Assembly (NCBI GenBank): GCA_019057865.1
Contig: JAHLWP010000050.1
Location: 1-24,041, forward strand
Source of the DNA: Promethearchaeota archaeon
GTDB lineage: Archaea; Asgardarchaeota; Lokiarchaeia; Sigyniarchaeales; SOKP01
Direction: 5' to 3'
Length of the DNA: 24,041 bases
Part shown: positions 2,227 to 19,808 of the stretch, piece after piece
Layout of the letters: each line of letters starts with the position of its first letter
Position numbering within the stretch: the first letter of the stretch is position 1
Position numbers and translations under genes: made by a program
The notes under the pieces: generated by a model
Told to the model about the DNA's origin: nothing
What the model saw: the letters and a program-made list of their open reading frames with translations, nothing else
Database searches by the model: none

Positions 2227-3639
2227 TTAAATTTTGGCAAAGTATTGCCTCCAAAGTCGTTTGTAATTTCCGTACCACTTATCAAGCTTTATTCTTTCAT
2301 GCTTAAAATACATTCCATGCCCTCTTATTGAGGGATGATAGTGAGTTTCTCGAACTAATAACTGATAATTTTCATATGTTTCATTGAAATCATCAATAAA
2401 TTCAGGAAATTTACCAAAATTATGCCTAAATACACGATAATCAAGTACTCTCTGTGCCCCTTCAGGAGTCATCATGCTCCTTTTAAACGATGGATAATAG
2501 GTATATTTCTTATGGAACCCTTCTAAGAGGTTATTCGTGGTTGTTATGAACGGATTCCGCTGATGGGCAATAATTTTCGGAAGCCATGACTCCAACTGCT
2601 TTAATGCAGTATGAAGCTCTTTTATCTTCTTTCCTTTCAAGCGTTCCACTGTTCTACGTATGATCTCTAATTTAATATATGCATCTGCTTCATCCTTAGA
2701 ATCAATCAGATCATAGAATCGCTTCAAAAGCCAACGCCATTTTTTAGGAACAGGTTTTCTTGATTGTTTCGATAATCCCGCAAATGCTTTTACATGCTTG
2801 GAGACGATCCATTTTACATGTGTTAAGCAATTTTGCTGTATTATATGCTTAAAACTTCTGGTTCTAAAGAGTCCGCCTAAGTTTGTAGTACAATCTTTCA
2901 TTAATCCATTTATCCACAGATTTTTGCCCCTCCTTCCTTCCATTAACACTTCCCTGCCCTCATTGCGCCCCATATGCTCTGAAATTTTAGCCACTGGCAC
3001 AAATTGGGTATTTATATCCACCGTATCTATAGCATACATCCGTTCTTTGCTAATTCTTAAATGGATCTCATCATATCCCCAATATCCGCTAGAAGGCACA
3101 GGTGTCTCTTTTAACATCTTTCTAAGCGGTCTAGCAACCTTATTTATCCAATTTACAAGTGTAGTTAATGAAATCTGTATACCAAAATCAATTTTAAACA
3201 CTCGCTGAATTTGAGAGGGCATCAACCCTTCCATATAATGTTGCCGTGTCCTTCGTGTATAATTCTCATGGTAATTGCCATATTTTGGCGCGATCTTCGA
3301 ATAATCAGGTTTAATTTCTCCACATCGAGGACAACGCTTTCTCTGAATGTGAAACTCGTGTCTCCCAAGCCCGTTATCTAAAATCGCAATCCTGTCATTA
3401 TGTCCATTTTTCACCAATCGAGAACCACATGTAAGACAGTGTGTCTCTTTAATATATATCGTTCCATTTCCTTTCATTCTTAAGGTATAACCCTTATCAA
3501 TAGATAATGCCTTTCTCCTTTTCACTTCAGCCAGTAGACTATGATTTTTAGGTTCAGGTAAATTAGGAAAAAATTTATTTAGAGTGTATTGTTCTATCTT
3601 AATGGGAGCTAATTTTTCTCTTATTTTACTTATTAGCAT
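2227..3639 (-). CDS. DDE transposase with N-terminal zinc ribbon
   Basis: CxxC...CxxC, HTH-like region, GYDE (D1), MKDC (D2), QNCLTH (CxxH signature of Mutator/IS256-type enzymes), TTNNLLEGFH (E). Confidence 0.93.
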   Translation of the reverse strand: MLISKIREKLAPIKIEQYTLNKFFPNLPEPKNHSLLAEVKRRKALSIDKGYTLRMKGNGTIYIKETHCLTCGSRLVKNGHNDRIAILDNGLGRHEFHIQRKRCPRCGEIKPDYSKIAPKYGNYHENYTRRTRQHYMEGLMPSQIQRVFKIDFGIQISLTTLVNWINKVARPLRKMLKETPVPSSGYWGYDEIHLRISKERMYAIDTVDINTQFVPVAKISEHMGRNEGREVLMEGRRGKNLWINGLMKDCTTNLGGLFRTRSFKHIIQQNCLTHVKWIVSKHVKAFAGLSKQSRKPVPKKWRWLLKRFYDLIDSKDEADAYIKLEIIRRTVERLKGKKIKELHTALKQLESWLPKIIAHQRNPFITTTNNLLEGFHKKYTYYPSFKRSMMTPEGAQRVLDYRVFRHNFGKFPEFIDDFNETYENYQLLVRETHYHPSIRGHGMYFKHERIKLDKWYGNYKRLWRQYFAKI

Positions 3640-7328: not shown

Positions 7329-7465
7329 ATTCCGCTAATTTCTATTTATTAAAACTTCTACAATTTTTGAAAATAGATTTCATATTATATTAAGATATGT
7401 TTAAATAAAAGAGAAATGAAATTTATTTCTATAAAATTTCAATTTTGTTAAAAATTTAATAAATT

Positions 7466-7615
7466 CTAATCTTCATGTTTTGATAAAAATTCATCAATTG
7501 CTCTTTTTGTTAATTCAGTTCGATTTCCTAATCCCATTGATTTTCCTTTATTATTAATAAATTTATCAATTCGTTCAGTTAATTCTTCTGGAAGTTTGAT
7601 AATTTTTTTCCCCAT
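7466..7615 (-). CDS. Ribbon-helix-helix (CopG/Arc/MetJ family) regulator, 49 aa (not in ORF track)
   Basis: Manual translation MGKKIIKLPEELTERIDKFINNKGKSMGLGNRTELTKRAIDEFLSKHED*: beta strand-LPEEL..ID helix, G..NRTE...RAI.EFL helix. Confidence 0.88.
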   Translation of the reverse strand: MGKKIIKLPEELTERIDKFINNKGKSMGLGNRTELTKRAIDEFLSKHED

Positions 7616-7630
7616 AATAATCAAATAACT

Positions 7631-7644
7631 ACAATTATAATTGT
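7631..7644. promoter_or_regulatory. Perfect 14-bp palindrome ACAATTATAATTGT, candidate operator
   Basis: 15 bp upstream of the RHH start codon in the divergent RHH/MTase intergenic region. Confidence 0.4.
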
Positions 7645-7826
7645 TATTTATTTGTTTTGGTAACTAATAGTAATATTTAAATATATCCTCTGATATATAT
7701 TATAGTATACCAAACAATTTTTTTTTTATAAAAAACAAAAATATTTTAAGTTGTTAATAAAAAAATTAAAAATAGAGAATGATTAATATAAATTGAAGAA
7801 ATATAATCAAATTTTCGTGAAATAAG

Positions 7827-8702
7827 ATGACAGATAAAACTTTAAAACAAACTAGTATAATAGAATTACCCGACGAAAAAAAAACAAATCATAAACTAAT
7901 TATTGGGGATGCATTAGAAGCGTTAAAAAATGAAGATTTAATTGGATCAGAAAGTATTCAATCTATAATAACAAGTCCTCCATATGGATTATATAAAGAT
8001 TATGGAGGATTTTATGAAGATAAATTTAATTTAGAACAATGGAAGGAATTAATCGACAAAATTGCTAAAAATAGTAGAAGAATTTTAAAAAAAAACGGGA
8101 GTTTTCTTATTAATATATCTCCTATCCCAAAAAATACTAAGACAAAAGAAATTACACCACTTGATTCATATGTATATTTTATATTTAAAGAGAATGGATA
8201 TTTCTTAAGAAATAAAATTATTTGGCATTTTAACAATATGCAAAACTGTATTAAAAGATTAAGTGGAAGGTGGGAAGCAATTTTATGGTTTGTAAAAGAT
8301 TTAAATGATTATATCTTTAATCTGGAAGATATCAGAATCCCATTTATTACTAAAAAAGATAAGAGATTAGAAGGAAAAAAAGGGAGAAATCCTACTGATC
8401 ATTGGTATTTTAATAGAGTAAACAATATGACTAAGAATAGATTAAAAATAAATCATCCATGCGTTTATCCAGATCCAATGATAGAAAGAATAATTAAGAT
8501 GACTACAAATGAAAATGATATCGTTTTAGATCCATTTGTTGGTTCTGGAACAACTATGAGAGTTGCAAGATATTTAAATAGAAATTCAATAGGTATTGAA
8601 ATAAATCCAAATTACATTGATCTCATTAAAAGAAGGCTTGAATTAAATAATTTAAAATATGGAAAATCAAAATTTAAAGTAATTAGATTTAATAATATAT
8701 AA
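7827..8702 (+). CDS. Beta-class DNA amino-methyltransferase, probably N4-cytosine
   Basis: Motif IV IITSPPY near N-terminus, HPCVYP, motif I VLDPFVGSGTT, SIGIEIN. Confidence 0.95.
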   Translation: MTDKTLKQTSIIELPDEKKTNHKLIIGDALEALKNEDLIGSESIQSIITSPPYGLYKDYGGFYEDKFNLEQWKELIDKIAKNSRRILKKNGSFLINISPIPKNTKTKEITPLDSYVYFIFKENGYFLRNKIIWHFNNMQNCIKRLSGRWEAILWFVKDLNDYIFNLEDIRIPFITKKDKRLEGKKGRNPTDHWYFNRVNNMTKNRLKINHPCVYPDPMIERIIKMTTNENDIVLDPFVGSGTTMRVARYLNRNSIGIEINPNYIDLIKRRLELNNLKYGKSKFKVIRFNNI

Positions 8703-8743
8703 TTTTAAAAAATAGAATTAGCTTAAAATAACCCTAGTGATAA

Positions 8744-10258
8744 ATGTATAATAATTTCAATGAATTAAATGAATTGAAATCTTCTCCTTTTCAAACTATT
8801 ATTAGTAAAATTAACCATGATCATAACTTTATACCTAATATCCTACAATTATATAGAAAATGTTTAAACCTTTTAAAAGAGCAAGGAACTATATGGATTT
8901 TTTCAAATAATATAGTTTCTAATGGTTCTTTAATTCCATTACCCTTAATTTTAAGTAATAAGTTAACGAAATTGGGATTTATATTAAAGAATTTAATTGT
9001 CTATTATAATTTAGATTATCCTTTAAATTCCATAAATTTAGAAAACCGTTATTCGCATATAATTTTTTTAACTAAAGATAAAGATAATTATAAATTTTAT
9101 AAAGATCCTATACGAGAAAAACATATTTGGAAAAATGTTGAGTGGGGAGGAGGTCGAGTAAGTAGATATCATGAAAAAGGAAAAGATCCAAGTAATTTCT
9201 GGTTAAAAACTAAAGATAATGGTAAAGGAAAAATAATTGAACATTTAATTCTTAATAATTCTGAAGTAATAGATAGGATTATTAAAGCTAGTACAGATAA
9301 AGATGATAAAGTGTTATACCTACATGATAAATTTAATAAAACAAATTATTTAAATGATAATTTCACTAACATAGAATTAAAATTTGAAGATATTAAAATA
9401 GTTAGGAGAGATAAATTTTCAAAAATTTTGAAAACCGAAAGTTCGAAATTTTTAGAAAAAAATCCTTTTAACTCGAAGATTTATATTAAAACTAGTGAAA
9501 CTATGAAAGAACTATCTGACAATTCAATTCAAACTATTATTACAAGTCCTCCTTATTGGGAATTAAGAGATTATGAACATCCTGATCAGATCGGCTATAA
9601 TAGTACTTATTCTGAATATTTATCAAGATTAAACAGAGTTTGGAAAGAATGTTATAGGGTTTTAAAAAATTTTGGCTCACTTTGGATTAATATTAATAAA
9701 AGAGTGAAAAGAGGTAATATGATTCTTTTCCCATATGATTTTTATGTTAACATTGAAAAAATAGGTTTTAAATTAATTGATATTATTATTTGGCATAAAC
9801 CAATTACTGTATCTGCTTATGGTTCAAAAAATTTAGGAGATCGATATGAATTTATTTTATTATTTAGTAAATCATCTGATTATAAGTTCAATTTAAATTT
9901 TAATTTAGATAAACCAGATTACATCCACTTAAATAACAAAACTTTACCTAATGTATGGCAGATGTTTCGTAAAATTGGTAGTATTGGAAAAGAAGTTGCA
10001 GTAATGATAAAAAACAAGAAAATTCATCATACCGCTATTTATCCTATAGAATTAGTAAGAAGAATTATTTTATTAACTACTGATAAAGGAGATTTCATAC
10101 TTGATCCATTTTCAGGATCTGGCACAACTTTAGTAGTAGCTAATAAATTATCAAGAAATTGGATTGGTTATGAAACTAATTCAAATTATGTTGAAATTAT
10201 AAAATTTAGATTAAAGACTGAAGGGAAAAGAATAAAGAGAATAGATGAGTTCTTCTAA
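8744..10258 (+). CDS. Two-domain beta-class DNA methyltransferase (degenerate N-terminal domain plus intact SPPY domain)
   Basis: C-half has IITSPPYW, HTAIYP, ILDPFSGSGTT, WIGYETN; N-half keeps LLKEQGTIWI, GFILKNLIVY, GKDPSNFW, RIIKASTDKDDKVL but lacks motifs IV and I. Confidence 0.93.
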   Translation: MYNNFNELNELKSSPFQTIISKINHDHNFIPNILQLYRKCLNLLKEQGTIWIFSNNIVSNGSLIPLPLILSNKLTKLGFILKNLIVYYNLDYPLNSINLENRYSHIIFLTKDKDNYKFYKDPIREKHIWKNVEWGGGRVSRYHEKGKDPSNFWLKTKDNGKGKIIEHLILNNSEVIDRIIKASTDKDDKVLYLHDKFNKTNYLNDNFTNIELKFEDIKIVRRDKFSKILKTESSKFLEKNPFNSKIYIKTSETMKELSDNSIQTIITSPPYWELRDYEHPDQIGYNSTYSEYLSRLNRVWKECYRVLKNFGSLWININKRVKRGNMILFPYDFYVNIEKIGFKLIDIIIWHKPITVSAYGSKNLGDRYEFILLFSKSSDYKFNLNFNLDKPDYIHLNNKTLPNVWQMFRKIGSIGKEVAVMIKNKKIHHTAIYPIELVRRIILLTTDKGDFILDPFSGSGTTLVVANKLSRNWIGYETNSNYVEIIKFRLKTEGKRIKRIDEFF

Positions 10259-10279
10259 TCATATATAGAAGGTCATTAT

Positions 10280-11041
10280 ATGGCATATCAGACTCGTTTT
10301 ATTGATTTTATTAAAGAAATAAAGGAAGAACAAATCAATTTTTATGAATATGACTTAATTGTTTTAAATAACAAATGGAATTGTGAAAAGAAGAAAATTA
10401 AGGAAATAGCAAGGATAGAAACTAACAAATGGCTTTCATTAAAAAGGTTTGGTGGAAATTTAGTTTTAATATTAATTGATACAATATTTAGTTTAAGAAA
10501 CAATTATGAAAGAATGTTGAGAAATATATTAATCCCATTTTATCAAAAATTTTCAAAATTCAAGTTACAGGATTTTGAAAAGATGAATTATAATGAACTA
10601 ATATCCTTTTCTTCCAAGAACTATTTAAATCTAGAATCCCTTCATCCTTTTTCTGATTATAATAGATGGAAATTATTTAAGACTTTTGTATATTTTTTAA
10701 TAAACAATTTTGATGGTGAAATTGATAGAATTCATAATTGGGCAATAAACCTTGATATAAGGGATTTTCTTAAAAATAAATCAAATAAATATGATTTTAA
10801 AGGATTTGGAATAGCTGGAATTCAATATTTAAGAATGCAATTAGGAGTAAATACAATTAAACCTGAAATTAGGATTAAAAACTCTTTAAAATTCTTTAAT
10901 ATTCAGTTTAAGAATGATTTTGATGTAATTAAAAAATTAGATGACTTTAGCCAAATCTTAAATTTAAAATTAATGGAACTTGGATTTATATTATGGTATT
11001 CCTATCCAATAAGTAAATTAAAATTCCATTCTGGAAAATAA
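10280..11041 (+). CDS. HhH-GPD superfamily DNA glycosylase-like protein
   Basis: LIDTIFSLRNNY, helix-hairpin-helix FKGFGIAGIQYLRMQLG, VNTIKPE (Glu at the usual Asp position), C-terminal LMELGFILW. Confidence 0.6.
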   Translation: MAYQTRFIDFIKEIKEEQINFYEYDLIVLNNKWNCEKKKIKEIARIETNKWLSLKRFGGNLVLILIDTIFSLRNNYERMLRNILIPFYQKFSKFKLQDFEKMNYNELISFSSKNYLNLESLHPFSDYNRWKLFKTFVYFLINNFDGEIDRIHNWAINLDIRDFLKNKSNKYDFKGFGIAGIQYLRMQLGVNTIKPEIRIKNSLKFFNIQFKNDFDVIKKLDDFSQILNLKLMELGFILWYSYPISKLKFHSGK

Positions 11042-11267
11042 TTATAAATATTCAATTTAAAATTCTTATTTTATTAAAAAATGTAAGTTATGCAATTTGA
11101 TTTTATAAAGTATAATAACTTTTAATTATGTTGTTATTATATCTTTTTATGAGAAAGTTAGGATGATTTATCACCATACCCAAATTATCACCATCTCTGA
11201 TAAATTATTCCTCATCTTTCTCTTATTAGTTTTTAATGGCTTAGTGTGTTTTTAAAATTGATTTTTT

Positions 11268-12143
11268 TTAAAAATCATTTAAGCTTTTCTGAACTCTTAC
11301 ATTCTTCTTAGGTTTTTTAAAATTTTTTTTCCTTTCATTAATAATTTTAAAAGCTGTCTCTTTTTTATTTTTAAATATATAATATAAAGCTGAAAAAGGA
11401 TGCATTTCTAATAGGGGTAGATAGATTTTTTTAGTCACTGCAATTTTTTTTTTACCTTTAAAATCTCCTTCTCTTTCTTTTCTATTCCATTCAATTTTTA
11501 CTTCATCTAGATATTTAAATACTTCTTTTGCATCCCAAAAGAATACACCCTTAACACATGGATAATCTAACCAATATACATAATAAGTATCTTCATCAAG
11601 GCTATCAATTATTTCTCGTTGAGCTTTAATTTTTTTTGCAATATCTAGAGTTGTTGATCCTTCATAGCATTCTCTTCCAGGTCTTACTTTGTAAGTTAAG
11701 AGAAAAGGAGATGTTAAGAATTTAACTTCATAATAACATATAATTTCATTATCATCACCTTTTACTAAATTATCAGGGTAGTTTTTATACGATTTATCTG
11801 CTTTTTCAGAATTAATTTCTTCTTTCTCCTTAAGAAAATCAATTAGTAAGAATTCGAATTGACGTCCAAGAATAACATCTAGCTTCTTATTAGATATATT
11901 TCGAGGATTCATATAATACTTATAACAACCAGAACATACTTTTTTTAACGAAGGAATTATATTAAAAAAGTTTTGCCTTTCTTGAACAATATCATTTGTA
12001 TAATATAAATACTTATAACATAATTCAGATATATCATCAAAAATAAATTGCCTTTCCTGTAGATTTACATTTTGAAAAAATTCTGATAATCTAGGTTTAC
12101 TAAAATCTAATAATTCCTTGAATAATGAAATACTTTCTTCCAT
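11268..12143 (-). CDS. PD-(D/E)XK endonuclease, putative restriction endonuclease
   Basis: LGRQFE...NYPDNLV...YYEVKF; adjacent to two MTases. Confidence 0.8.
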   Translation of the reverse strand: MEESISLFKELLDFSKPRLSEFFQNVNLQERQFIFDDISELCYKYLYYTNDIVQERQNFFNIIPSLKKVCSGCYKYYMNPRNISNKKLDVILGRQFEFLLIDFLKEKEEINSEKADKSYKNYPDNLVKGDDNEIICYYEVKFLTSPFLLTYKVRPGRECYEGSTTLDIAKKIKAQREIIDSLDEDTYYVYWLDYPCVKGVFFWDAKEVFKYLDEVKIEWNRKEREGDFKGKKKIAVTKKIYLPLLEMHPFSALYYIFKNKKETAFKIINERKKNFKKPKKNVRVQKSLNDF

Positions 12144-12227
12144 AATTATTTCAAGGATTAATTTATTATTATTCTTTTTTTAAATTTGAAAAAATTTTTA
12201 TAAATTAATAATTACTAATAAATTATT

Positions 12228-13502
12228 ATGGGTTCTATAAAGACAGATTCCTTGGATATTCAAATACCATCATTTTTTCCAATAATAGGATGGCCAGCAG
12301 GTCGTGGAGAATATGATAATCTATTCAGAAATCTCTCTTATTTCTGTAATAAATTGGATCATTGGACATTTTTATTTAACTTTTCTTCATTTATATTTGG
12401 CTTTACTATACCAAAAACTAATCCTTTTTTCAATGATTATATTAAATATGAAGGGAAGAATATTAGAGATATATTAACCGAATATACATTAACTAATAGA
12501 GAGGTTGTAAGTAAAATAAAAATCCTCCTCGATGTTGGAGGTAATCGTATTTTTAATAAAGTAATAAATGATAATCTCCCTGTTTCAGAAATAAATAGTT
12601 ATAGACGTTATTATGAAGCGTATTTCAATTTTATAAAAAACGGAAAACCAAATGTATATGTTAATTTTGATATAGGTCCAAGCTACTCATCTAGAGATGA
12701 AGTTTCAATTAGAGGTCGAGAAGAATGGAATAAATTATCTCAATCCATAAAAGAAAACATAAATGATCAACTATTAGAAATTTCCATCCAAAATAAACAA
12801 AAGGAGAGTAAATTAATGATACCTATTAATGCCTTGAATCTAGAACATTTTAAATCAAAATTAAGTAAATTACATTCAAAATATCAAGAAGAAATTGATT
12901 ATATCGGAATAGCAGGAATAGCTAATCAAGGATTTAAAAAAGTAAATCAAACACTAAGATTTTTTAATAATTTCAGAAGAAAATCTAATTGGAATGTCTT
13001 ATGTCATGGATTAGGTTTAGGTGGATGGAAAAAAATATTTGCCTTAGCATATTATGATATTGAAAGTTGTGATGTTGCTACACCTTGGAGAAGGGCTTGT
13101 ACAGATAGAATATCTCAAGTTTATATCCCCTTAATTGATGAACAGTTAGAAATTACTTCTCACTCTGATCCTTTACGATATGAAGGATTATATAGTGACC
13201 GATTTCAAGATTTTGCTTGTAATTGTCCTTTTTGTAATGATATTCCTCTAGTAGATGTTAGAAATAGATGTATGAATGCAGATAAACAACTCATAAATCA
13301 GGAAAAACATGGTGAAGATTTTAGAGAAATGAGAATCAGAATATTTTTTCATAATCTATATCAACATATAGCATTACTTAGAAAATTATTTATATTAAAG
13401 CAAGAAAAACCACAAAATTTTATTAAATCCTTTTTAAATGAGATTAGAAATACAGAAGCAAGAAAAAAAATTAGAAATGCTGTAAAAGATTTAATGTTGT
13501 GA
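12228..13502 (+). CDS. tRNA-guanine transglycosylase (TGT) family protein, possibly DNA-acting (DpdA-like)
   Basis: IPSFFP, LLDVGG (cf. DSGG), NFDIGP, YIGIAG, HGLGLG, ESCDVATPWR (second catalytic Asp position), zinc site CNCPFC...HNL; no PUA domain. Confidence 0.85.
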   Translation: MGSIKTDSLDIQIPSFFPIIGWPAGRGEYDNLFRNLSYFCNKLDHWTFLFNFSSFIFGFTIPKTNPFFNDYIKYEGKNIRDILTEYTLTNREVVSKIKILLDVGGNRIFNKVINDNLPVSEINSYRRYYEAYFNFIKNGKPNVYVNFDIGPSYSSRDEVSIRGREEWNKLSQSIKENINDQLLEISIQNKQKESKLMIPINALNLEHFKSKLSKLHSKYQEEIDYIGIAGIANQGFKKVNQTLRFFNNFRRKSNWNVLCHGLGLGGWKKIFALAYYDIESCDVATPWRRACTDRISQVYIPLIDEQLEITSHSDPLRYEGLYSDRFQDFACNCPFCNDIPLVDVRNRCMNADKQLINQEKHGEDFREMRIRIFFHNLYQHIALLRKLFILKQEKPQNFIKSFLNEIRNTEARKKIRNAVKDLML

Positions 13503-14079: not shown

Positions 14080-15177
14080 TTATTTATGTAATGACTCTAA
14101 ATTACTAATTATTAATTCTATCATATCAATTAAATTCGTCTCCGAACTAGAACTAAGTTCTTCCTTCTTCAACCTTAATTCTTTAATAATAGGAATTATA
14201 TTTTCTTCAATATTAGTCGAATTTAATAAATTTCTAAAATTTTGTAATGTATAGATATCTTTTTTATCAATAGCTTTATATATCTCAGTTAAAATGCTTT
14301 TAAAATATCCACATTTGTATAAAATTAGAGTAATATCACTATTTTTATATCCACTTTCATATAATTTTTTAAAATTGTGATAATTTACACTATTTACTAG
14401 TTCTGAAAATTTAGGCTTTAAAACTAACATCCTAACTGTTCCCAGAATAATTCTTTTTATTAGATCATTATTTTTGCTTAGAATATATTTATCTACACTC
14501 TCGACATATTTGTTGATTACATCAAGCTCATTTTCAGTAAAATCTTCTTTAACTAAAATTTGTGCAAATACATTATGAATTTTATTTAGCATTGGCACTA
14601 TATTCGTAGAAGATAACTGTGAATTCTTAATCATATCTAAATATTCTTTAATTAATTCTAAATCAGGCTTTATTTCAATTTTCTTGATTGGGTCAATATT
14701 ATTTAGGTCTTTTTCATTAAATAAAAAATATAATTGTTTATCTGAAACTAAGCGTTTCCCAAAAGGTGTTCGAATATAATAAATACGATTTTTAATCTCA
14801 GGTCCCTTTCTTTCAATTATAAATGCATGAGGAATATCTTTTTTCCTTTCAATTGTTATAATTGATAAATCTCCTTCCTCACATTCCAAAAATTCAAAAT
14901 TATAATTTATGATTGGGCTTATTTTATTATGAATAATATTATCAATATCACCTTTCAGGGTATCTACATCATAATCTTTTTTTCCATCAAAAGAACCATC
15001 ATTTTGAAGACCAATTATTATCTTACCACCATTTCGATTGGCAAAAGATATTATTTCCTTAGCTATTTTATCCTTCCAATCCTTTTCTTTAAGAATTTTA
15101 GAGCTCTTTAATTCATATTTAATATTTTCAAATTCAGATTTTTCTCGTAATTTCTCTATTTCGATACATTTGGTCAT
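14080..15177 (-). CDS. Schlafen/AlbA_2 domain protein with helical C-terminal domain
   Basis: EFENIKYELKSS, IAKEIISFANRNGGKIIIGLQND, IPH, YYIRTPFGKR. Confidence 0.92.
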   Translation of the reverse strand: MTKCIEIEKLREKSEFENIKYELKSSKILKEKDWKDKIAKEIISFANRNGGKIIIGLQNDGSFDGKKDYDVDTLKGDIDNIIHNKISPIINYNFEFLECEEGDLSIITIERKKDIPHAFIIERKGPEIKNRIYYIRTPFGKRLVSDKQLYFLFNEKDLNNIDPIKKIEIKPDLELIKEYLDMIKNSQLSSTNIVPMLNKIHNVFAQILVKEDFTENELDVINKYVESVDKYILSKNNDLIKRIILGTVRMLVLKPKFSELVNSVNYHNFKKLYESGYKNSDITLILYKCGYFKSILTEIYKAIDKKDIYTLQNFRNLLNSTNIEENIIPIIKELRLKKEELSSSSETNLIDMIELIISNLESLHK

Positions 15178-18204: not shown

Positions 18205-18684
18205 TTGAAGCAAAGGAAATTCAAAAGCTGTATTCAAACTTTTTTATCTTTACTTGACATGAAAAGGCATCCAAAAGCTAGCTATATGAAGATACTATAC
18301 CTAGCCTTGAGATATCACCAAACAACCTTTAGTTTGGCAGAACTTCCGCATAAATTTCTAATTCTAACGGTTGTTTTCGAATCATTATTTAAAGGAGAAA
18401 AGGAGAATGCAAGCCGAGCAGCAAAAAGAATTTCAAAACTAATTTCAAAAGTAAAAAATGATCGGCAAAGAATTCATAAAGCATTCTGTGGTAATCCTCC
18501 AGATACATTTTGCAAAATTAGAAATGCAATTGCTCATGGAGACCCTAACCTTAAAGAAGAAATAGTAGAATCGAAATATCCATTATTGTACAAATATATC
18601 ACTAAAGCAATAATCGAATTAATTTTAATCCCATCTGGAGATATAAATTATAATAAAGATTATTATATTGAGATAGATAATTAA
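18205..18684 (+). pseudogene. ApeA-like HEPN domain, probably 5'-truncated
   Basis: FLILTVVFESLF and RxxxxH motif KIRNAIAHGD; TTG start, no N-terminal domain. Confidence 0.75.
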
Positions 18685-18782: not shown

Positions 18783-19808
18783 CTATAACTCAGTCTTTAA
18801 TAAAGGCAAACATACTTCCTTCATGAATATCTTACACTGTTTTATGTACTTCTTTACAAGTGCTTTTTTCTCTTCATTTAAAAAATCAATTAGCCATTTA
18901 TTATGATAAATATTTATTATAAAGACTTGCTGCCCATTCATCTCAAAAGATTTAAATAACCTTAGGGTTTTGAAATCTTCATAATATTTAGACATGTTGA
19001 CTTGTATGTCATTTAATAATCCCGCTGTAATTTTCATTCCTTTCTTTTTTAATAAATTTGTAAATTGTTCTTGGGATTCTTTTCCGAGGAAAATAATTAA
19101 CAGGGGTGTAATTAATTGAACCTCCTCATAGAGAAATTGAATGCAGCTTTCAGAGCACTCCTTCCATTTTTGATTGTTTTTCGCATTACATTTACATAAA
19201 TCTGTAATGTATATGTTATTCTTGATAAATTCGAAGCGAATTCCAAAGATCTCGGCGAAGTATTCCCAGAGATTATGATTCTCAATGCCTTTTCTGTATT
19301 TTTCTAATTTTTTCGCTTTGGAACTTTTTTCCCAGTATTTATACTTTTTATATCGTAAGTTGCCAAGCCCTTCATCACTTACTTCTTTCTCCAATTGCTC
19401 AAAGATTTGATTGTTTTCTTTCTCAGCCCATCTTCCATCATTTCTTATGTGGAGATTTACGAGTCCATAAGCTAAATTCAGATGAGTGGAAATGCCTGGA
19501 CCTGCAGCCTCTCCAACCACCATAATCAAAGCAGCTATCTCGCCACCTTTAAAGTTTAAAGTGACATTTCCTCCCGGGATCTCCATAGGTCGTTCTTGAA
19601 AACCCTTTCCAAAGGCCTGAATGCATTCTGGTCTTTTACAGCCTTCATTTATATTTCTCTTGAATTCAATCAGAAACTTGTTTATCGCAACCTTATCTTT
19701 TATGAATTTCACAGTCTCTTTTTCAATATCAAAATGCAACAACAGATCAGCTAATCTTGGACTATAATACCGTTTTAAAAGTGCTTCAAACTTAATAATT
19801 CTTGTCAT
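18783..19808 (-). CDS. Uracil-DNA glycosylase superfamily protein (divergent, with insertions)
   Basis: IMVVGEAAG (cf. GEAPG), IYITDLCKC, C..FLYEEVQLITPLLIIFLGKES, INIYH. Confidence 0.8.
   Translation of the reverse strand: MTRIIKFEALLKRYYSPRLADLLLHFDIEKETVKFIKDKVAINKFLIEFKRNINEGCKRPECIQAFGKGFQERPMEIPGGNVTLNFKGGEIAALIMVVGEAAGPGISTHLNLAYGLVNLHIRNDGRWAEKENNQIFEQLEKEVSDEGLGNLRYKKYKYWEKSSKAKKLEKYRKGIENHNLWEYFAEIFGIRFEFIKNNIYITDLCKCNAKNNQKWKECSESCIQFLYEEVQLITPLLIIFLGKESQEQFTNLLKKKGMKITAGLLNDIQVNMSKYYEDFKTLRLFKSFEMNGQQVFIINIYHNKWLIDFLNEEKKALVKKYIKQCKIFMKEVCLPLLKTEL

Follow-up and report, generated by a model that had tools for sequence, protein, structure and literature searches.

The contig JAHLWP010000050.1 of assembly GCA_019057865.1 (C43; the window, analysed at its full length of 24,041 bp) belongs to a 4.26-Mb metagenome-assembled genome (MAG) of a Promethearchaeota archaeon that is 99.7% complete. 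Between positions 7466 and 13502 it carries a compact cassette of six genes, encoding, in this order, a small ribbon–helix–helix (RHH)-like protein, two DNA methyltransferases (MTases A and B), a 253-amino-acid protein, a PD-(D/E)XK nuclease (X) and a divergent enzyme of the tRNA-guanine transglycosylase (TGT) superfamily (TGTL, for TGT-like). The locus is real and conserved and is an apparently undescribed variant of a restriction–modification (R-M) system. The six genes, which an earlier note had read from the letters of the window, are real and intact at the positions that it gave, with all of their reading frames open, and are separated from left to right by gaps of 202, 41, 21, 226 and 84 bp. 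The last gap (12144..12227) is an A/T-rich spacer with TATA-like boxes on both strands; direct reading confirmed that it is 84 bp long and lies head-to-head between X and TGTL, as had been claimed. The G+C fraction is 0.237 over positions 7456-13502 versus 0.31 in the left part of the contig.

Enzymes encoded by the cassette

TGTL (424 amino acids) is encoded on the forward strand at 12228..13502. Its AlphaFold (AF2) model, with a predicted local distance difference test (pLDDT) score of 90.9, matches bacterial TGT (3unt) with a Z score of 25.5 and a root-mean-square deviation of 3.3 over 328 aligned residues and archaeosine TGT (arcTGT; 1iq8) with a Z score of 25.4; DpdA reaches 19.3, Cap10 18.5 and unrelated TIM barrels at most 14.3. 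As modelled, TGTL is a TIM-barrel enzyme of the TGT fold with a C-terminal zinc subdomain, and the assignment to the TGT family made in the earlier note is borne out both by the fold (Z scores of 25–27) and by the motifs. Across the 27 members of the TGTL family, Asp102 and Asp282 are invariant and Asp148 is at least 90% conserved, the predicted roles of these residues being those of the general acid/base (Asp102), base binding (Asp148) and the nucleophile (Asp282). The glycine loop GIAGIA at 227-232 is kept throughout the family, and the zinc ligands Cys331, Cys333, Cys336 and His375 are invariant or at least 90% conserved. These motifs align with those of the host's own arcTGT, and Asp282 aligns with the nucleophile Asp256 of DpdA, in which the roles of the residues have been described (PMC10164549). 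A WRRA motif that follows the nucleophile is common to all nuclease-linked TGT clades and is not found in arcTGT. Judged by this conservation, TGTL is apparently catalytically intact, with an active site that appears to be under selection.

TGTL itself falls below the gathering threshold of PF01702 and was also missed by the genome-wide PF01702 search; about half of its homologues have a precomputed PF01702 match, often a weak one. Against TGTL, the DpdA family of NCBIfam (NF041059) gave an E value of 0.008 and 15 bits versus a cut-off of 200, and the PADLOC DpdA model gave an E value of 0.013. A profile of the TGTL family had a sole match among the PDB sequences, DpdA (7ui4; E value 0.9), and a single-sequence search of the PDB with TGTL gave no match. 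The PUA and other tRNA-binding domains found in arcTGT are absent from TGTL. After the TGTs and DpdA, its next structural match is Cap10, a protein-modifying TGT-like enzyme, in the Cap10–CdnD complex (9ntn_B, Z score 18.5). It is improbable that TGTL does not act on DNA but modifies tRNA or attaches a base to a protein such as X, as Cap10 does to a CD-NTase, and so regulates the cassette. The model does lie nearest to the tRNA TGTs (Z scores of 25.5 and 25.4) and does resemble Cap10, and the translational coupling with X described below would suit an enzyme–substrate pair; however, the cassette has no QueC-like Cap9 partner, TGTL is devoid of the tRNA-binding domains of arcTGT and the context of the locus consists of DNA enzymes only. 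The prediction of a complex between X and TGTL scored below the mark and was not used as evidence either way.

X (291 amino acids; 11268..12143, reverse strand) has a D124...E139-x-K141 motif that is invariant in 55 homologues. In both structure searches the top matches of its AF2 model (pLDDT 88) were all PD-(D/E)XK nucleases, namely Hjc (Z score 8.2), D212 (8.1), ThaI (6.8) and MspI (6.0), with Foldseek E values of only ~2e-3. Because the match list is consistent, the Z scores reach ~8 and the motif is invariant, X is, on the strength of its model, a PD-(D/E)XK nuclease, as had been proposed, and is presumed to be the restriction subunit that cuts phosphodiester bonds. X has no Pfam match and no match among the PDB sequences in either single-sequence or profile searches; one of its homologues has a weak precomputed match to PF27324 ('MjaV'), the only basis for a link between X and R.MjaV. 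Four nearly invariant cysteines of the family (C70, C73, C159 and C196) may form a structural metal site. In the Atlas, two clusters with 109 and 177 members, mostly bacterial, have the whole X fold (TM scores of 0.73–0.84), so the family is wider than the 56 sequences recovered by sequence search.

MTase A (7827..8702, forward strand) matches PF01555 (2.5e-53) and PADLOC MTase_II (3.8e-56) and is a β-class amino-methyltransferase with SPPY at position 50 and FVGSGT at position 237; its orthologues, 55–81% identical, are found in all loci. MTase B (8744..10258, forward strand; 504 amino acids) matches PF01555 (6.3e-63) in two stretches. Its active β-class SPPY domain is C-terminal (~245-495), with SPPY at 268 and FSGSGT at 456, while the N-terminal half is ~28% identical to the middle of MTase A and has neither catalytic motif. 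The former description of MTase B as a double-domain enzyme therefore holds for its two MTase-like halves but not for two active domains, as it has a single SPPY and FxGSGT set and a degenerate N-terminal half. Orthologues of MTase B come in two sizes, ~500 or ~275-300 amino acids. All 24 of the 24 cassette MTases that were checked are of the SPPY type with one catalytic set each. The SPPY form is typical of N4-cytosine MTases, although it is no proof of specificity, and MTase A is probably specific for N4-cytosine by this motif. A likeness of the cassette MTases to the dPreQ1 methylase DpdM was considered and rejected, since DpdM belongs to DUF3109 and not to PF01555.

Recurrence and mobility of the four-gene core

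The neighbourhoods of TGTL homologues, together with loci drawn from genome and metagenome collections and annotated uniformly with hidden Markov models, reveal a core consisting of X, TGTL, MTase A and MTase B that recurs in ~15 independent loci from at least five phyla. Wherever a locus is not truncated by the end of a contig, all four genes are present. The carriers are the window, the archaeon 'Promethearchaeota archaeon Loki_b31', Methanolobus psychrotolerans YSF-03, a Chloroflexota MAG, a Micrarchaeia MAG, a Woesearchaeota MAG and about nine metagenome contigs, a range that spans Asgard archaea, Methanosarcinales, DPANN archaea, Chloroflexota and metagenomes. X lies directly upstream of TGTL on the same strand in 14 of the 19 distinct loci, often with an overlap of 4–17 nucleotides or a gap of 3–15 nucleotides, and in most loci the pair converges on an operon of MTases A and B. 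A search begun from X again gave this set and added two TGT clades (428–489 amino acids) that are nearer to canonical Tgt; in these two other X-linked clades the three equivalent aspartates are invariant and the zinc ligands are kept.

These data bear directly on the possibility that an ordinary R-M system merely lies beside unrelated TGT-like and glycosylase-like genes. The earlier note had held that the locus would be a chance assembly if homologues of the TGT-like and HhH genes were never found with the MTases or the nuclease; TGT-like, nuclease and MTase genes occur together in every untruncated locus, and its view of a coherent, co-inherited, defence-type locus is upheld by the recurrence of the four-gene set. 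The confinement of the HhH-GPD-like gene to four close relatives speaks for chance, but the core four genes recur, coupled in a conserved manner and between differing flanks, in ~15 independent loci of at least five phyla, so chance juxtaposition is refuted for the core and its overall probability is negligible.

The genes outside the core are lineage-specific add-ons. The 253-amino-acid protein (10280..11041, forward strand) is an HhH-GPD-superfamily-like (Ogg2-like) accessory protein by the matches of its remote family. It has three close homologues, all in the nearest relatives of the window, and 136 remote ones, and its place in the core of a defence locus, as formerly proposed, is not supported by this distribution. 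In the remote family the consensus of the hairpin closes with KPD, and Asp, the catalytic residue of wider-family and HhH-GPD enzymes, occupies position 196 in at least 90% of the members; Glu196 takes its place invariantly in the window protein and its close homologues (four sequences), and the window protein has no lyase Lys in the hairpin. A profile of 60 members of the remote family matches the archaeal Ogg 3fhg (E value 0.0036), two of the 60 match PF00730 (6.9e-6) and the nearest named clusters in a language-model comparison are PF22175 (Ogg-HhH). The protein itself has no match in Pfam, NCBIfam, PADLOC or PHROGs, and a four-sequence profile gave nothing against the PDB. The HhH-GPD-like label thus stands as a superfamily-level likeness seen through remote relatives, but not as a direct match of the window protein.

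The RHH-like protein (7466..7624, reverse strand) has 52 amino acids if it starts at TTG or 49 if it starts at the ATG at 7615 and scores 15.2 bits (E value 0.021) against Pfam RHH_1, for which the cut-off is 20.5. It occurs in three related loci in all and is 79% identical in Loki_b31 (L001 3356-3514) and 74% identical in L016. In the latter, a short contig, the gene (136-273) is directly upstream of the TGT-like gene on the same strand, a position that appears to link the protein to the TGTL side of the cassette. Its likely role, as read from its sequence and position, is that of the cassette controller.

Several loci depart from the common layout or have neighbours of their own. The X homologue at L008 follows a gene for a Tag-like 3-methyladenine glycosylase (PF03352) and precedes a 553-amino-acid DPPY MTase and an SNF2/DEAD helicase, all within an island with OLD-family and HD proteins. 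The idea that the MTase type tracks its partner, SPPY going with the guanine enzyme and DPPY with the Tag-like glycosylase of L008, was set aside, as in L027 a DPPY MTase fragment accompanies a TGT, and the second pairing is known from L008 only. In Loki_b31, the cassette is adjoined on one side by a more canonical 464-amino-acid TGT (PF01702) and a 385-amino-acid SPPY MTase with permuted motif order (L001 366-3169, equal to L012 2-2223) and on the other by an McrBC pair. A weak DUF6884 gene lies near the Methanolobus cassette (L002 6090-6773).

The cassette is rare, mobile and horizontally acquired. A pattern scan of 185,579 species genomes, which detects the window-type TGTL clade only, found relatives in four of them. 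Among 400 Asgard genomes the cassette was present in two, and in none of 53 genomes of the same genus; a scan of the 400 with the X profile and the second TGT clade returned only the two known carriers. The source MAG and Loki_b31 belong to one family and have in common a 6-kb block (7456-13471 of the window) with 75% nucleotide identity and unrelated flanks. At other loci the cassette is adjoined by resolvase, Mob or integrase genes. No member of the TGTL family was found in the IMG/VR viral contigs, tblastn of TGTL and X against the PLSDB plasmids gave no match and the 464-amino-acid TGT of L001 had one marginal match only among phage records.

In the window, the low-G+C stretch runs on past the cassette into further defence-like genes, including a Schlafen/AlbA_2 protein at 14080-15177 (reverse strand; 8.4e-15), a weak HEPN-like protein at 18205-18684 (forward strand) and a 341-amino-acid UDG-superfamily protein at 18783-19808 (reverse strand; 3.3e-10). 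On the other side, a 470-amino-acid open reading frame at 2227-3639 (reverse strand) lies in a patch with a G+C fraction of 0.35-0.38, and its sole match is a weak one to DUF6431; the earlier note labels this region an insertion sequence (IS) element.

Deazaguanine supply and the proposed mechanism

The earlier note stated that the window holds no dpdB-K or preQ0 synthesis genes, and none was found among its open reading frames. The dpdD-K restriction genes are likewise absent from the open reading frames of the window and from the called genes of 15 related loci, and no preQ0, DpdB or DpdC gene is found at any locus (called genes, 15 to ~20 loci). In the otherwise nearly complete genome of the window, QueC is present only as a remnant tail and QueD is frameshifted: on contig C53 (L011 2668-3391), queC is a C-terminal open reading frame of 62 amino acids and queD next to it is broken across two reading frames. 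These remnants suggest either that the ability to make preQ0 de novo has been lost or that the assembly contains errors. The same genome keeps an arcTGT (C80) and an ArcS-like gene (C79). True QueC and QueD were found in one of five host genomes, that of Methanolobus, and not in those of the window, Loki_b31, the Micrarchaeia or the Woesearchaeota archaeon, QueE and FolE not having been searched for; in the last two genomes, both DPANN, arcTGT was also not found.

Three things are established: what the genes encode, that their active sites are conserved and that the four are strictly inherited together. Our preferred reading, tentative and just short of an even balance, is that the cassette is a type II-like R-M system in which TGTL is part of the restriction arm and, at sites without methylation, breaks the glycosidic bond of guanine. 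TGTL leans towards the restriction arm because its gene is coupled to that of the nuclease and the MTases have an operon of their own, because two MTases already provide a self-mark and because no deazaguanine supply is evident. In the proposed mechanism, MTases A and B would methylate, probably to N4-methylcytosine, the two strands of an asymmetric site containing G:C pairs and so protect the host DNA, and X and TGTL, to judge from the operon structure, would form the attack arm. By analogy with the chemistry of TGT and DpdA, TGTL would flip out a guanine at an unmethylated site and break its N-glycosidic bond through Asp282, which may leave either a covalent enzyme–DNA intermediate or an abasic site. 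X would then cut the phosphodiester backbone, either in the opposite strand or beside the lesion. Restriction enzymes that act by base excision are known in the PabI family (PMC10273834, PMC4357717). The more specific proposal that TGTL is a 'restriction transglycosylase', forming a heteromeric restriction enzyme with X and breaking guanine N-glycosidic bonds in unmethylated foreign DNA, is possible but decidedly open to doubt.

The main rival, which we regard as rather unlikely, is that TGTL is instead a Dpd-like writer that replaces guanine in the host DNA by a 7-deazaguanine, or by some other salvaged base, and so would add a second self-mark to methylation, with X restricting unmarked DNA. 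In its favour, the only weak family matches of TGTL are to DpdA (NF041059, PADLOC and the profile match to 7ui4), the active site is complete down to the glycine loop in which the 7-substituent is held, enzymes of this fold natively catalyse base exchange (PMC10164549), and the genome of the window keeps arcTGT and the ArcS-like gene and may import preQ0. However, no preQ0, DpdB or DpdC genes occur at ~20 loci, true QueC and QueD are confined to one of the five hosts, two of which also have no arcTGT, the MTases already supply a self-mark and TGTL is coupled to the nuclease gene rather than to the MTase genes; in addition, the score of TGTL in the DpdA equivalog is 15 bits where 200 are required, and its fold is nearer to the tRNA TGTs (Z score 25.5) than to DpdA (Z score 19.3).

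A third role, counter-counter-defence, would have TGTL remove or exchange modified viral guanines such as 7-deazaguanines so that the nuclease can cut the masked sites, and we give it only a slim chance. 7-Deazaguanines shield viral DNA from restriction, also in an archaeal virus (PMC6884629, PMC10516641), and defence glycosylases against 7-deazaguanine DNA are known (bioRxiv 10.1101/2025.10.29.685425). TGT pockets bind 7-deazaguanine bases by design, and the clade of the window has a second glycosylase-like gene. Against this, the constant link to two MTases is not explained by such a role alone, and the absence of family members from viral contigs and phage records gives no sign of an arms-race partner. 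Moreover, it is established chemistry that TGT-type enzymes activate the leaving base at N7; as 7-deaza bases carry no nitrogen at this position that could be protonated for departure, the de-protection of deazaguanine-modified viral DNA would be chemically awkward. Of the two mechanisms that the earlier note had put forward, deazaguanine self-marking is thus weakened by the lack of preQ0, DpdB and DpdC genes, by the scarcity of QueC and QueD among the hosts and by the co-operonic arrangement of TGTL with the nuclease, while attack by base removal appears to fit better.

Several points weigh against the reading of TGTL as part of a base-removing restriction arm. In TGT chemistry the covalent intermediate is normally resolved only by an incoming base. 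Pure base excision would be a new activity for the TGT fold, and, as a PD-(D/E)XK nuclease can restrict alone, the need for a second attacking activity is not obvious. X and TGTL are divergent and not co-transcribed in the window and in Loki_b31; an X homologue without any TGT is found at L008 (5307-10758), and at L001 the TGT-like gene of 464 amino acids is paired with an MTase and has no X of its own. The absence of QueC and QueD is compatible with preQ0 salvage, and for three hosts the genome is a MAG. Finally, DpdA, the only characterized relative that acts on DNA, writes a base rather than attacking (PMC10164549).

Comparison with known systems

R-M is the best-studied form of prokaryotic defence, and a TGT-fold enzyme as an obligate part of such a cassette was not found in the literature: full-text searches returned Dpd and DpdA, BREX-related TGT modules, defence glycosylases and enzymes of the PabI type, but no TGT-fold gene in a cassette with a nuclease and two MTases. 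The pairing of the nuclease with an apparently active relative of the guanine-exchanging enzymes Tgt and DpdA hints at an undescribed way to attack or mark DNA at guanines. One of its carriers, M. psychrotolerans YSF-03, is a cultured strain, and the cassette is only ~4 kb in size.

The accessory 253-amino-acid protein resembles HhH-GPD glycosylases of the Mig.MthI type and archaeal Ogg2 (3fhg, 3knt) in its helix-hairpin-helix followed by an acidic residue ~20 positions on, and it shares with the Mig.MthI type a link to R-M; its wider family weakly matches Ogg2 structures and PF00730. It differs from Mig.MthI and Ogg2 in having Glu in place of the catalytic Asp, no lyase Lys and no Fe–S cluster. 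In addition, the MTases linked to it are amino-MTases, which, unlike those in the Mig.MthI setting, create no T:G mismatches.

TGTL and DpdA (PDB 7ui4; PMC10164549, PMC6884629) share the TGT-fold TIM barrel, the three aspartates, the zinc subdomain and the equivalent nucleophile (Asp256 in DpdA, Asp282 in TGTL); neither has tRNA-binding domains, and each has a defence or R-M setting with a nuclease partner encoded in its locus. Their sequence similarity is nevertheless marginal (15 bits versus 200; profile E value 0.9), and the Z score of 19.3 is below those for tRNA TGTs. The His of the His181-Gly182 pair of DpdA is Asn or Ser in the TGTL clade, the WRRA motif after the nucleophile is lacking in DpdA as well as in arcTGT, and TGTL, unlike DpdA, always occurs with two amino-MTases. 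The cassette also has no equivalent of the DpdB ATPase (ParB-like), DpdC (DUF328), the helicase and nuclease set DpdD-K or the preQ0 genes of the Dpd system. On a plasmid of Haladaptatus sp. YSMS36 (NZ_CP119784.1, 51560-68570; L032), two genes annotated as tRNA-guanine transglycosylases are surrounded by genes for DEAD-box helicases, large ATPases, a PLD-like nuclease and a DUF6884 protein; the locus is of a Dpd/BRIGADE-like kind and differs from the present cassette. If TGTL does write a base, the cassette would be a minimal Dpd-like system of a transglycosylase and a nuclease without DpdB or DpdC, and its operation in hosts that make no preQ0 would imply a new substrate or salvage route.

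Among type II R-M systems, BbvCI, Bpu10I, BtsI and BsrDI combine two MTases with a two-subunit endonuclease for an asymmetric site. The cassette resembles the BbvCI type in its paralogous MTase pair, its two co-expressed restriction-side genes, its compactness and mobility and its one PD-(D/E)XK subunit, but its second restriction-side subunit has a transglycosylase fold and is not a second nuclease.

PabI, of the HALFPIPE fold, offers a possible working analogy, as its restriction starts with an N-glycosidic cut at an unmethylated site and its cognate MTase protects (PMC10273834, PMC4357717). Its fold is unrelated to the TIM barrel of TGTL and to the PD-(D/E)XK fold of X. PabI excises adenine, the methylated base itself, and needs no nuclease partner, whereas in the cassette the base would be guanine, the MTases look like the N4-methylcytosine type and a dedicated nuclease is always present. 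If TGTL does attack DNA, it would bring a new restriction chemistry and possibly a tool for sequence-specific guanine excision or DNA crosslinking; as a restriction transglycosylase, it would represent the first destructive use of the TGT fold and, next to PabI, a second class of base-excision restriction that evolved separately.

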